Positions 41,762 through 61,810 of a stretch of DNA of 64,000 nucleotides are shown here, piece by piece. The notes beneath the pieces are model-generated. The model was not told where the DNA came from. It searched no databases and saw nothing but the letters and a program-made list of their open reading frames with translations. Source of the DNA: Escherichia coli (GTDB taxonomy: Bacteria; Pseudomonadota; Gammaproteobacteria; Enterobacterales; Enterobacteriaceae); NCBI RefSeq assembly GCF_016903815.1, contig NZ_CP069973.1; one strand, given 5' to 3'. Positions within the stretch are counted from its first letter, which is position 1, and the number at the start of each line of letters is the position of its first letter. Both the position numbers and the translations under genes were made by a program.

Positions 41762-43033
<1,272 letters not shown>

Positions 43034-43057
43034 GTTGTCATTTCCCACCCTTATAAA

Positions 43058-43080
43058 AGGTCCGCTTGCGGGCCTTTTTT
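43058..43080 (+). terminator. Rho-independent terminator of the acpP-fabF transcript
   Basis: aggtccgc-ttg-cgggcct hairpin followed by TTTTTT, 25 bp after the fabF stop. Confidence 0.7.
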
Positions 43081-43081
43081 C

Positions 43082-43794
43082 TTGTGCACAGAAAACCCCC
43101 AGCTAGGCTGGGGGTTCCGGAAAGCTTTCAGCTTTAAGCCAGTTATTAAAACCCCTTTTGATTTGTTAAAACACCTTGCGGTCTGGCAACTGCAAGTGTC
43201 AAACAAGAAATCAAAAGGGGGTCCCAATGGGGAACGAAAAGAGCTTAGCGCACACCCGATGGAACTGTAAATATCACATAGTTTTTGCGCCAAAATACCG
43301 AAGACAGGTGTTCTACAGAGAGAAGCGTAGAGCAATAGGCAGTATTTTGAGAAAGCTGTGTGAGTGGAAAAGTGTACGGATTCTGGAAGCTGAATGCTGT
43401 GCAGATCATATCCATATGCTTGTGGAGATCCCGCCCAAAATGAGCGTATCCGGCTTTATGGGATATCTGAAAGGGAAAAGCAGTCTGATGCTTTACGAGC
43501 AGTTTGGTGATTTGAAATTCAAATACAGGAACAGGGAGTTCTGGTGCAGAGGGTACTACGTCGATACGGTGGGTAAGAACACGGCGAAGATACAGGATTA
43601 CATAAAGCACCAGCTTGAAGAGGATAAAATGGGAGAGCAGTTATCGATTCCCTATCCGGGCAGCCCGTTTACGGGCCGTAAGTAACGAAGTTGGATGCAA
43701 ATGTCAGATCGTGTGCGCCTGTTAGGGCGCGGCTGGTAAGAGAGCCTTATAGGCGCATTTGAAAAACCTCCGGCTATGCCGGAGGATATTTATT
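43082..43794 (+). mobile_element. IS200 (IS200/IS605 family) insertion sequence, copy 1
   Basis: About 713 bp that is apparently identical to 59980..60692 (ORF-track translations identical on both strands); encodes an HuH Y1 transposase; left-end hairpin cccccag-ctagg-ctggggg (43096..43114) and right-end hairpin cctccggc-tat-gccggagg; boundaries set by where the two copies diverge, plus or minus a few bp. Confidence 0.9.
43227..43685 (+). CDS. tnpA: IS200 transposase TnpA (HuH Y1 family)
   Basis: 152-aa protein MGNEKSLAHTRWNCKYHIVFAPKYRR...ADHIHMLVEIP...; HxH motif and Tyr-containing C-terminal region; closely matches Salmonella IS200 TnpA from memory. Confidence 0.9.
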   Translation: MGNEKSLAHTRWNCKYHIVFAPKYRRQVFYREKRRAIGSILRKLCEWKSVRILEAECCADHIHMLVEIPPKMSVSGFMGYLKGKSSLMLYEQFGDLKFKYRNREFWCRGYYVDTVGKNTAKIQDYIKHQLEEDKMGEQLSIPYPGSPFTGRK

Positions 43795-43863: not shown

Positions 43864-44673
43864 ATGTTCTTAATTAACGGTCATAAGCAGGAATCGCTGG
43901 CAGTAAGCGATCGGGCAACGCAGTTTGGTGATGGTTGTTTTACCACCGCCAGAGTTATCGACGGTAAAGTCAGTTTGTTATCGGCGCATATCCAGCGACT
44001 ACAGGATGCTTGTCAGCGGTTGATGATTTCCTGTGACTTCTGGCCTCAGCTTGAACTAGAGATGAAAACGCTGGCAGCAGAACAGCAAAATGGTGTGCTG
44101 AAAGTGGTGATCAGTCGCGGTAGTGGCGGGCGAGGATACAGCACATTGAACAGCGGACCGGCAACGCGGATTCTCTCCGTTACGGTTTATCCCGCACATT
44201 ACGACCGTTTGCGTAACGAGGGGATGACGTTGGCGCTAAGCCCGGTGCGGCTGGGGCGCAATCCTCATCTTGCAGGTATTAAACATCTTAATCGGCTTGA
44301 GCAAGTATTGATCCGCTCTCATCTTGAGCAGACAAACGCTGATGAGGCGCTGGTCCTTGACAGCGAAGGGTGGGTTACGGAATGCTGTGCGGCTAATTTG
44401 TTCTGGCGGAAGGGCAACGTAGTTTATACGCCGCGACTGGATCAGGCAGGTGTTAACGGCATTATGCGACAATTCTGTATCCGTTTACTGGCACAATCCT
44501 CTTATCAGCTTGTCGAAGTGCAAGCCTCGCTGGAGGAGGCGTTGCAGGCAGATGAGATGGTTATTTGTAATGCGTTAATGCCAGTGATACCCGTACGTGC
44601 CTGTGGCGATGTCTCCTTTTCGTCAGCAACGTTATATGAATATTTAGCCCCACTTTGTGAGCGCCCGAATTAG
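43864..44673 (+). CDS. pabC: Aminodeoxychorismate lyase PabC
   Basis: 269-aa protein matching PabC. Confidence 0.93.
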
Positions 44674-59653: not shown

Positions 59654-59911
59654 ATGAAAAACGTAAAAACCCTCATCGCTGCGGCGATTTTAAGCTCCAT
59701 GTCATTTGCCAGCTTTGCGGCTGTCGAAGTTCAGTCAACGCCAGAAGGCCAACAAAAAGTCGGTACTATCAGTGCTAACGCGGGGACAAATCTGGGATCG
59801 CTGGAAGAGCAGCTGGCGCAAAAAGCGGATGAGATGGGCGCAAAATCATTCCGTATTACTTCTGTAACCGGTCCAAATACCCTCCATGGAACAGCAGTAA
59901 TTTATAAATAA
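59654..59911 (+). CDS. bhsA: Multiple stress resistance protein BhsA (YcfR)
   Basis: 85-aa secreted protein with signal peptide MKNVKTLIAAAILSSMSFASFA. Confidence 0.9.
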   Translation: MKNVKTLIAAAILSSMSFASFAAVEVQSTPEGQQKVGTISANAGTNLGSLEEQLAQKADEMGAKSFRITSVTGPNTLHGTAVIYK

Positions 59912-59950
59912 GCATTAACCCTCATTAATGCCTGCTACTGCTGATTTTTT

Positions 59951-59979
59951 CCCCGCGACATGCCGTGTCGCGGGGATTT
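59951..59979. terminator. Terminator hairpin downstream of bhsA (ancestrally shared with convergent ldtC)
   Basis: ccccgcgaca-tgccg-tgtcgcgggg 10-bp stem, flanked by TTTTTT upstream and ATTTT downstream. Confidence 0.7.
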
Positions 59980-60692
59980 TTGTGCACAGAAAACCCCCAG
60001 CTAGGCTGGGGGTTCCGGAAAGCTTTCAGCTTTAAGCCAGTTATTAAAACCCCTTTTGATTTGTTAAAACACCTTGCGGTCTGGCAACTGCAAGTGTCAA
60101 ACAAGAAATCAAAAGGGGGTCCCAATGGGGAACGAAAAGAGCTTAGCGCACACCCGATGGAACTGTAAATATCACATAGTTTTTGCGCCAAAATACCGAA
60201 GACAGGTGTTCTACAGAGAGAAGCGTAGAGCAATAGGCAGTATTTTGAGAAAGCTGTGTGAGTGGAAAAGTGTACGGATTCTGGAAGCTGAATGCTGTGC
60301 AGATCATATCCATATGCTTGTGGAGATCCCGCCCAAAATGAGCGTATCCGGCTTTATGGGATATCTGAAAGGGAAAAGCAGTCTGATGCTTTACGAGCAG
60401 TTTGGTGATTTGAAATTCAAATACAGGAACAGGGAGTTCTGGTGCAGAGGGTACTACGTCGATACGGTGGGTAAGAACACGGCGAAGATACAGGATTACA
60501 TAAAGCACCAGCTTGAAGAGGATAAAATGGGAGAGCAGTTATCGATTCCCTATCCGGGCAGCCCGTTTACGGGCCGTAAGTAACGAAGTTGGATGCAAAT
60601 GTCAGATCGTGTGCGCCTGTTAGGGCGCGGCTGGTAAGAGAGCCTTATAGGCGCATTTGAAAAACCTCCGGCTATGCCGGAGGATATTTATT
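59980..60692 (+). mobile_element. IS200 (IS200/IS605 family) insertion sequence, copy 2
   Basis: Apparently identical to copy 1, offset 16,898 bp, same orientation; left end abuts the bhsA terminator T-tract and right end lies 12 bp from the ldtC stop. Confidence 0.9.
60125..60583 (+). CDS. tnpA: IS200 transposase TnpA (HuH Y1 family), copy 2
   Basis: Protein identical to the copy 1 TnpA. Confidence 0.9.
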   Translation: MGNEKSLAHTRWNCKYHIVFAPKYRRQVFYREKRRAIGSILRKLCEWKSVRILEAECCADHIHMLVEIPPKMSVSGFMGYLKGKSSLMLYEQFGDLKFKYRNREFWCRGYYVDTVGKNTAKIQDYIKHQLEEDKMGEQLSIPYPGSPFTGRK

Positions 60693-60704
60693 TTTATCCA
60701 GGAT

Positions 60705-61667
60705 TTACAGAGTTTGTGGGCTCACTTGATGACGGCGGACATCCACCGGCATCCCGGAACGGACATCCATCACATGTTGCATCACTTCAGCGTCAGTTTG
60801 TGCTGCATCTTTAAATGATTGCATTGCGCTATTCAGCGTAATTGGCAGCAGCTGCGGATCGTCATCAATCTTCTCTGACAGCGGCTGATGTACTTCAACC
60901 AGACGCGCACCGTTTGGTTCGGCAGAGACTTTTATCGGAGTGTTGATGATATTCACTTTGGTGCCTGGGGTGACCTGGCTAAAGAGTGTTTTGATATCGT
61001 CATCCCGCAGACGAATACAGCCAGAACTTACCCGCATGCCAATGCCGAAATCGGCGTTCGTACCATGAAGCAAATAAACGCCGCCATAGGCCGCCAGACG
61101 AATCGCATGATGGCCCATTGGGTTATCCGGTCCAGCCGGCACTACCGCAGGCAACTCAATTCCCTGTGCTTTATAACGGGCGCGGATGTTTGCCGTTGGC
61201 GTCCAGGTTGGGTTTGCTCGTTTGTCTGAAACGGTGGTCACCATTGTCGGTGTCAGCGTGTCACCACCCAACTGACCAATACCTATTGGATACACGGTTA
61301 CCGAATTTTTACCCGGCGGGTAGTAATAGAGACGCAGCTCCGCAATATTGATCACAATGCCTTCGCGCGGCGCATCTGGAAGTAGGGTTTGCAACGGGAT
61401 CGTTAACACGCTGCCCGCGCGCGGTACGTAAGGATCAACGCCGGGGTTAGCCTGTAACAGAGCGAGAAAGCCGACGTTATATTTTTTGGCGATGGCTTCC
61501 AGAGAACCACCGTCATTTTCCACCACATGAAATTTGTTTTCGCCAACCAGACGACTGCCCGCTGGCGGCAGCGGCCAGGTGTTGGCTTTTGCCGGTAGCG
61601 CCAGCGCCACGGCAGCGGCGAACGTAAAAAACGTTAGCCAGCGAGAAAAACGCGTTTTGATCATCAC
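60705..61667 (-). CDS. ldtC: L,D-transpeptidase LdtC (YcfS)
   Basis: 320-aa protein from a GTG start (MIKTRFSRWLTFF…) with YkuD catalytic motif context (HGTN…SSGCIRL). Confidence 0.92.
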   Translation of the reverse strand: MMIKTRFSRWLTFFTFAAAVALALPAKANTWPLPPAGSRLVGENKFHVVENDGGSLEAIAKKYNVGFLALLQANPGVDPYVPRAGSVLTIPLQTLLPDAPREGIVINIAELRLYYYPPGKNSVTVYPIGIGQLGGDTLTPTMVTTVSDKRANPTWTPTANIRARYKAQGIELPAVVPAGPDNPMGHHAIRLAAYGGVYLLHGTNADFGIGMRVSSGCIRLRDDDIKTLFSQVTPGTKVNIINTPIKVSAEPNGARLVEVHQPLSEKIDDDPQLLPITLNSAMQSFKDAAQTDAEVMQHVMDVRSGMPVDVRRHQVSPQTL

Positions 61668-61810
61668 CAAAAATCCATAATAAATATAAGGTTATTGTAA
61701 TAAACAGATAAGCCTGAATTATGGATGGTGACAGTGTCGGATAGTGCAGGGAAGTGCAAAGAATTTGTAAATGTTGCAGATGGGGGCGCAGAAACGCCCC
61801 CGATTTACCA

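Follow-up and report, generated by a model that had tools for sequence, protein, structure and literature searches.

Insertion of IS200-type elements at the T-tract edge of terminator-like hairpins in Escherichia coli as well as other bacteria

Target choice in the IS200/IS605 family has been described for IS608 and ISDra2, which insert 3' of a short left motif (TTAC and TTGAT, respectively), make no target duplication and favour the lagging-strand template. Here, we analysed two copies of IS200 in a 64,000-nt stretch of the Escherichia coli chromosome (contig NZ_CP069973.1 of assembly GCF_016903815.1; hereafter the window), which is in K-12 orientation and extends from the fabF-pabC region to that of bhsA and ldtC. 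In addition to this mode of insertion, the two copies share with IS608 and ISDra2 the fold family of the transposase, subterminal hairpins and the lack of inverted repeats. By analogy with IS608, the A-rich sequence 5' of each IS200 hairpin could act as a guide. However, IS608 and ISDra2 need the short motif only, whereas IS200-type elements add a near-obligate GC-rich hairpin 5' of a T-rich motif. The target motif of IS200, TTNTT, furthermore resembles its own right-end cleavage motif, TTATT; to our knowledge, the target motif of IS608 has no such resemblance to its right-end cleavage motif.

The closest functional parallel is provided by group IIC introns, which typically sit just past terminator motifs or attC stem-loops (PMC1702495; PMC7923331), thereby using terminators as safe landing sites, and which recognise a stem-loop together with a short stretch rich in T. 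They differ in being retroelements, equipped with a ribozyme and a reverse transcriptase, and in reading DNA partly by RNA pairing. We considered group IIC intron membership for the window's elements and rejected it: the sole gene encodes a Y1_Tnp protein of 152 aa, and the sole significant Rfam match is STnc490. IS200 is an analogue of these introns in site choice, not their kin. Two further systems act on extragenic hairpins. Some insertion sequences, for example ISPpu9 and ISPpu10 of the IS110 family, take intergenic hairpin-forming repeats (REP or other extragenic palindromes) as targets and thereby avoid genes (PMC8450116; bioRxiv 10.64898/2026.03.19.712850); these insertion sequences use specific repeats and other recombinase types, whereas the IS200 target stems have no sequence in common. 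TnpA-REP, a domesticated Y1 HUH transposase of the same superfamily, likewise acts on GC-rich hairpins that lie outside genes and bear a short conserved flank (PMC8266576; PMC6006769), but its hairpins are its own cognate repeats, whereas IS200 uses unrelated host terminators as targets.

An upstream excess of terminator-like sequences has been reported for insertion sequences, strongest in IS200/IS605 (bioRxiv 10.1101/2025.07.22.666184). In that preprint, a terminator-like sequence lay outside-upstream of 40.2% and inside-upstream of 0.2% of 20,314 IS200/IS605 copies (Supp. Table 1). Its element boundaries come from an automatic annotator, no motif at the target, resolved insertion point, empty site or analysis of strands is reported, and it reads the excess as expression control or niche, not as target selection. 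Papers on IS200 regulation describe the internal left-end terminator only (PMC4513863; PMC5435999). In the searchable literature, we found no link between IS200 and external terminators beyond the preprint, although older papers could contain an earlier notice. Near-obligate, nucleotide-precise terminator targeting appears to be an under-described variant of IS200/IS605 behaviour, partly anticipated by this one preprint.

IS200 insertions at the fabF and bhsA terminators

The window holds two copies of IS200C, each of 711 bp and on the + strand, 16,898 bp apart. Comparison of filled and empty sites placed the inserted segment GTGCACAG...GATATTTATT at 43084-43794 (copy 1) and at 59982-60692 (copy 2). 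The copies show no mismatch over 43082-43794 and 59980-60692, and the sole difference in the aligned block lies in the flank, where a C (43081) precedes copy 1 and a T (59979) precedes copy 2. An earlier note on this DNA had placed both copies immediately 3' of host terminators, with starts at about 43082 and 59980. These starts are correct for the shared sequence, but as insertion boundaries they lie 2 nt early. The host hairpins, the T-tracts and the left-end hairpin of the element were all found where the note had them. The empty sites also reveal no target duplication, showing clean 711-bp insertions 3' of TTCTT for copy 1 and 3' of TTTTT for copy 2.

Copy 1 lies between fabF (41792-43033, + strand; open reading frame (ORF) list, annotation of K-12 and of strain 7/2) and pabC (43864-44673, + strand; ORF list and annotation), which begins 70 nt past the element. 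The fabF terminator hairpin AAAAGGTCCGCTTGCGGGCCTTTT (43055-43078, + strand) starts 21 nt past the fabF stop codon and has a 10-pair stem, including an A:T extension, and the loop CTTG; it was found by a terminator scan, is present in the K-12 empty site and is followed by TTCTT. Folded as single-stranded DNA, it reaches -7.5 kcal/mol (z -3.2). The T-tract TTTTTTCTT (43075-43083, + strand) ends in the target motif TTCTT (43079-43083), directly 5' of copy 1. In K-12, the empty fabF-pabC site reads ...GGGCCTTTTTTCTT/AGCTTTTATT..., with the slash at the junction and AGC directly past it, and the T-tract reads ...CCTTTTTTCTT/AGC.

Copy 2 lies between bhsA (59654-59911, + strand) and the convergent ldtC (60705-61670, - strand), both from the ORF list and the K-12 annotation. 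The bhsA terminator hairpin TCCCCGCGACATGCCGTGTCGCGGGGA (59950-59976, + strand; terminator scan) has a 12-pair stem, starts 38 nt past the bhsA stop codon, is followed by TTTTT and folds as single-stranded DNA at -14.9 kcal/mol (z -6.5). These five T (59977-59981, + strand) form the target motif 5' of copy 2, and the remaining three T of an original T8 now stand at 60693-60695. The reconstructed bhsA-ldtC site, GGGGA-T8-ATCC, matched several E. coli genomes at 100% over 162 nt, and the K-12 empty site has T7 (GGGGA-T7-ATCC). A gain of 1 nt upon insertion was considered and ruled out by the T8 empty sites, identical at 100%, in other E. coli genomes.

Both host hairpins fit an intrinsic terminator, with a GC-rich stem-loop directly followed by a T-tract and placed past the stop codon of a co-directional gene. 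The small RNA BhsB (bhsB ncRNA), annotated in K-12, ends on the last T of the bhsA tract, which suggests indirectly that the bhsA hairpin terminates transcription; no such support was found for the fabF hairpin. Copy 2 splits the T8 that forms the 3' tail of BhsB, so that U5 and then GUG of the element would now form the end of the transcript.

The fabF-pabC insertion is present in 225 and the bhsA-ldtC insertion in 97 of 5,426 complete E. coli genomes; the two are separate events, and their spread differs. Each copy runs in the same direction as its upstream gene (fabF or bhsA), as the earlier note had observed; this co-directionality is confounded with the known preference of the family for the lagging-strand template.

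Left flanks of IS200-type elements in public collections

The earlier note had suggested a structure- or sequence-directed target choice and a survey of IS200 left flanks as a check. For this survey, public collections were scanned for the conserved left-end hairpin, each match was oriented and its upstream sequence was taken; flanks that differed at no more than 8 of 40 positions were merged into one unique flank. The discovery set consisted of viral contigs and genome contigs (one genome per species, among the matches listed) from Enterobacterales, Vibrio, Oxalobacter, Enterococcus, Ruminococcus, other Bacillota, Desulfovibrio, Mailhella and a metagenome-assembled genome (MAG) of Saccharibacteria. 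Two chance pattern matches (L139 and L140) were left out, and most of the 19 matches that could not be oriented were set aside as chance matches or other elements. The rule of the terminator scan was applied to the flanks: the stem had to have 5 or more pairs, 3 or more of them G:C, the loop 3-8 nt and the T-tract 5 or more T in 8 bases, and a flank was scored as strictly terminator-like when such a site ended 0-11 nt before the element. Sub-stems were tested in calling hairpins, since an A:T extension of the stem absorbs the T-tract. Positions in the same loci outside the elements served as controls.

A strict site was found upstream in 109 of the 135 unique left flanks (81%) of the discovery set, and the misses were mostly imperfect or long hairpins. 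Under the same rule, the control rates were 1.05% at all positions and 7.1% at positions preceded by TTNTT, and among non-coding positions they were 10.7% for those that follow TTNTT and 15.0% for those that follow TTTTT (Fisher p between 1e-57 and 1e-189). The median folding energy of the 45 nt upstream was -11.0 kcal/mol in the discovery flanks and -2.1 kcal/mol in the non-coding TTNTT controls, and values of -6 kcal/mol or lower were reached by 94% of the former and 15% of the latter. The result was replicated in metagenome contigs, where 80 of 94 new unique flanks (85%) were strict matches and 94.7% reached -6 kcal/mol or lower. For the element type of the window (leader GTGCACAGAAA), the hairpin was present in 20/22 and 47/47, that is, in 67/69 unique flanks.

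Over both sets, 189 of 229 unique flanks (83%) from Proteobacteria, Bacillota, relatives of Desulfovibrio and Saccharibacteria were strictly terminator-like, compared with 1-15% in the controls. IS200 left flanks are therefore clearly richer in terminators than random intergenic sites. The survey supports the directed choice put forward in the earlier note, with a TTNTT part and a hairpin part. The window itself holds just two events, which would leave room for coincidence; given control rates of 1.05% (all positions) and 10.7% (non-coding TTNTT), the chance that 2/2 copies fall at strict terminator-like sites is about 1e-4 to 1e-2. However, 229 independent flanks share the pattern, so that coincidence is refuted by the survey and its probability is practically nil.

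The insertion point could be read to the nucleotide. In 109 flanks, the five bases before the element are TTNTT, with T in 97% at -5, in 90% at -4, in 100% at -2 and in 94% at -1, and any base at -3. The nearly invariant TTNTT fits targeting by sequence alone, at any TTNTT or T-run, followed by purifying selection that lets harmless insertions at terminators survive. The IS200/IS605 family is known for targets of 4-5 nt (TTAC for IS608 and TTGAT for ISDra2), and an insertion past the T-tract spares the terminator and is expected to be near neutral. However, a hairpin accompanies only 11-15% of non-coding TTNTT or TTTTT sites, compared with 81-85% (strict) or 94% (relaxed) of the insertions, and selection would have to remove all other intergenic insertions at least 20-35-fold. 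Near-identical many-copy bursts within one genome (Vibrio ruber and a Bacillota MAG), apparently recent, give the same hairpin figure, which argues against selection as the only cause. We therefore regard sequence-only targeting with later selection as improbable.

Positions -8 to -14 are rich in G/C and correspond to the 3' arm of the stem, and the distance from the last G:C pair to the boundary is 5-11 nt, with a mode of 7, in essentially all strict matches. When the flanks of the 27 copies with both ends readable were rejoined, the element lay where the T-tract ends on its 3' side: 15/27 reconstructed sites had no T after it and 22/27 had at most one, and the terminator was kept whole upstream. 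The structure is confined to the left side, with a median of -10.0 kcal/mol in left flanks (96% at or below -6) versus -2.8 kcal/mol in right flanks (8%; n=25, p = 1e-7). We found no stem sequence shared among the target flanks, in which only the form of a GC-rich hairpin plus T-tract is common. The targeted terminators have a higher 5' A count than the controls (3.06 vs 1.82), but these controls are contaminated by false terminators within genes, and the count was not used as evidence.

This precision also bears on whether copies behind host terminators persist because read-through into the transposase gene tnpA is blocked. The preprint, which cites work on terminators in this family, reads upstream terminators as limiting transposase expression (bioRxiv 10.1101/2025.07.22.666184), and the left-end terminator of IS200 itself is reported to stop approximately 85% of incoming transcripts (PMC5435999), which indicates that insulation matters to the element. 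However, insulation, like harmlessness, would be satisfied anywhere past a terminator, yet the boundary keeps to 5-11 nt past the last G:C pair, at the edge of the T-tract. Because such positional precision needs a targeting mechanism, selection for insulation alone is insufficient, and we consider it very improbable as the explanation; it may account for why the preference evolved, not for how it is produced.

The GC skew of the top-strand flanks is positive in 92 of 109 flanks (p = 1e-13), and the top strand is therefore usually the lagging-strand template. The two window copies, on the + strand in K-12 orientation, lie, on the established E. coli map, in the clockwise replichore. Where an upstream ORF could be judged, 41 were co-directional and 8 opposite, by crude ORF calls. 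The excess of co-directional ORFs favours transcription-coupled targeting, in which the non-template T-tract would be exposed in a paused or terminating RNA polymerase and the hairpin would matter as RNA. Insertion occurs at the 3' edge of the T-tract, approximately 7-9 nt past the stem, and this is the position at which intrinsic termination takes place. In addition, clustering of IS608 insertions in highly transcribed rrn operons is cited in PMC5027513. In the gamma-proteobacterial subfamilies, however, the skew is positive in 44/51 flanks, against approximately 55% expected from gene orientation alone (p = 3e-6), which indicates a replication component and argues against pure transcription coupling. 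Furthermore, at 7/8 of the loci whose nearest long upstream ORF is on the opposite strand, the element still lies at a strong hairpin with a T-tract, although short unrecognised co-directional genes could intervene. ORF orientation and GC skew together suggest, though not decisively given the crude ORF calls, a replication component, and transcription-coupled targeting is rather unlikely.

Taken together, these results demonstrate a directed choice of site that acts on the left side, is accurate to within a few nucleotides and needs more than a T-run. We consider it probable that each window copy was placed by directed choice at the 3' T-tract edge of a terminator-like structure, and that this habit is common to IS200-type elements of many phyla.

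Anatomy of the element and related loci

Copy 1 (43084-43794, + strand), assigned to the IS200C type, was delimited as a 711-bp insertion without target duplication from the empty site and from its identity with copy 2 (59982-60692, + strand), which has the same sequence. The left-end subterminal hairpin AACCCCCAGCTAGGCTGGGGGTT (43094-43116, + strand) folds as DNA at -11.7 kcal/mol and is preceded by an A-rich GAAA(A), the proposed guide. It corresponds to nt 12-34 of IS200, described as a bidirectional terminator (PMC4513863). The Rfam family STnc490 (RF01405; art200 and the 5' untranslated region (5'UTR) of tnpA) matches 43094-43217 (+ strand) with 146 bits (E 1e-31), against a gathering score of 56, and is the only significant Rfam match in the element. 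The tnpA gene (43227-43685, + strand) encodes, by translation, a 152-aa Y1 HUH transposase (Pfam Y1_Tnp, PF01797, E 4e-38), and the same gene in strain 7/2 is named IS200C family transposase in RefSeq. At the right end (43767-43794, + strand), GAAAAA precedes the hairpin CCTCCGGCTATGCCGGAGG (43767-43785; -10.0 kcal/mol), which is followed by the 9-nt tail ATATTTATT. The terminator scan called this right end itself terminator-like on both strands, and its layout of A-tract, hairpin and T-rich tail recurs in all subfamilies seen. The parts of copy 2 lie correspondingly at 59992-60014 (left hairpin), 60125-60583 (tnpA), 60665-60683 (right hairpin) and 60684-60692 (tail), on the + strand.

The 711-bp elements have a Y1_Tnp gene alone, without tnpB, and subterminal hairpins at both ends, and the sequences at their termini, GTGCACAG... 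and ...GATATTTATT, form no inverted repeat. No duplication was made, and a short motif abuts the left end, with a 2-nt TT ambiguity of placement; the top strand is mostly on the lagging-strand template, as judged from flank GC skew. The art200/STnc490 region and the stem-loop of tnpA's 5'UTR within the left end are those of IS200 proper. The window's elements are plain, intact members of the IS200 group, with all of its testable defining features; within the IS200/IS605 family, IS200 is the member that has tnpA only, and it moves as single-stranded DNA. On the minus strand, 43762-43794 gave a weak partial Rfam match to the Yersinia small RNA Ysr202 (27 bits, far under the gathering score), which probably reflects merely IS1541 sequence within that Rfam model.

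The surveyed loci contained several related arrangements. On the reverse strand of one viral contig (L021), two left-end matches 710 bp apart form a head-to-tail tandem of IS200, in which the second copy begins exactly after the ...GATATTTATT of the first. The junction is that expected of a circle joining right and left ends, and the right end here serves as, or mimics, a target. In another viral contig (L014), a copy of the IS200C type has a weak left flank hairpin (-5.1 kcal/mol) and lies 0 nt from the edge of a 1,245-nt opposite-strand ORF (stop to stop); this copy is a candidate exception, in or at the edge of a gene. Short perfect palindromes of the IS200 left-end hairpin were found at L118:650-790 (Dickeya undicola), near 2568 in L111 and near 7686 in L115. 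They repeat the leader, in inverted form, on both sides of the hairpin, for example GTCTATAGAAA-ACCCCCAGCCTAGCTGGGGGT-TTTCTATAGAC, and have no transposase gene. In L118, a terminator-like hairpin plus T-tract faces the element on each side, and palindromes of this type look like miniature left-end derivatives that keep the same landing habit.

A 21-nt core of the left-end hairpin, ACCCCCAGC-NNN-GCTGGGGGT, is exactly kept across loci L056-L175 and L176-L295, in Proteobacteria, Bacillota (Enterococcus, Ruminococcus and Oscillospiraceae), Desulfovibrio, Mailhella and a Saccharibacteria MAG, whereas the left end otherwise varies, its 8-nt leader included. This exact conservation suggests, from sequence comparison, that the transposase may read the left-end hairpin by its sequence. 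In a Clostridia subfamily (L066, L094 and L135-L137), the hairpin is preceded by GTTA or GTAA in place of GAAA; flank hairpins still adjoin four of these five loci (not L094), but the abutting bases are not clearly TTNTT, with boundaries unfixed and few copies. This subfamily is a possible natural test of covariation between guide and target.

Recognition of the target and its consequences

In the mechanism that we favour, the target would combine a GC-rich hairpin with a TTNTT that comes 5-11 nt past its last G:C pair, and the element would insert directly 3' of TTNTT. Its top strand would enter the strand that bears the hairpin and the T-tract, mostly the lagging-strand template. The host terminator would stay whole upstream, no host gene would be disrupted, and tnpA would land behind two terminators, that of the host and the left-end hairpin of the element. 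TTNTT may be read through base contacts with the GAAAA just 5' of the left-end hairpin, in the manner of the IS608 guide.

Three roles of the target hairpin are conceivable. First, the target may mimic the element's own right end, where GAAAAA, a GC-rich hairpin and a 9-nt T-rich tail end in TTATT; this idea is supported by the L021 tandem and by the terminator-like score of the right end. Second, a stable hairpin on the lagging-strand template might keep the adjoining T-tract single-stranded and clear of single-strand-binding protein, an inhibitor of target cleavage in IS608. Third, the target could be the non-template strand exposed where RNA polymerase pauses at the terminator; the GC-skew excess counts against this third idea in its pure form. 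A more radical version, in which IS200-type elements would land on the transcription termination complex itself, with an RNA hairpin and insertion at the termination point, or, less radically, in which TnpA would take any GC-rich hairpin plus T-tail for its own right end, is doubtful on present evidence. If true, such structure-directed choice by a GC-rich hairpin plus T-tail would be of a kind not described for Y1 transposases.

Several points weigh against directed choice by hairpin and T-tract. Insertions of IS200 and IS1541 within genes are known (hisD984, inv and caf1A), and a few of the surveyed insertions, such as L088, L014 and L213, have no convincing hairpin. All flanks are standing insertions that have already been under selection. 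The distance between stem and site (5-11 nt) is loose for a strict mimic of the right end, and the target stems have no sequence in common with the hairpins of the element. Part of the constancy of the A-rich guide follows from the orientation rule, which demanded AAA before the hairpin. Finally, in IS608, the best-studied relative, double-stranded DNA beside the target gives no integration stimulus (PMC5027513). The hairpin requirement lies outside the family model of target contacts, and the effect cannot simply be carried over from IS608.

IS200 has long been puzzling in that it is very widespread and yet is portrayed as harmless and almost immobile (PMC4513863; bioRxiv 10.1101/2024.06.26.600842), with a mean copy number of 2.9 in E. 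coli (PMC4513863). Far above this mean, some E. coli genomes (for example strains 7/2, AR_0067 and CFSAN018748) gave 20-35 matches to 100-nt queries across the junction of flank and left end. All but one or two of these are necessarily IS200 left ends, and therefore IS200 has expanded recently in some lineages. Copy numbers in Yersinia exceed the 20-35 of these genomes. A near-obligate spot past host terminators would explain how copies build up without gene breakage, and the same landing habit would explain why tnpA is strongly shielded from outside transcription. Some caution is warranted for small RNAs that derive from 3'UTRs and end at such terminators, as BhsB does here, the U-tails of which can be altered; in the 97 genomes that carry the bhsA insertion, the split BhsB tail could alter termination efficiency or the binding of an RNA chaperone to the U-tail.

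For the family, terminator targeting would widen the target rule of a single-strand HUH transposase from a bare motif of 4-5 nt to a motif plus an adjacent hairpin. After the group IIC introns, IS200 would be the second class of mobile element, not related to the first, to have adopted terminators convergently as its safe sites, and the rule predicts where IS200 copies will sit.

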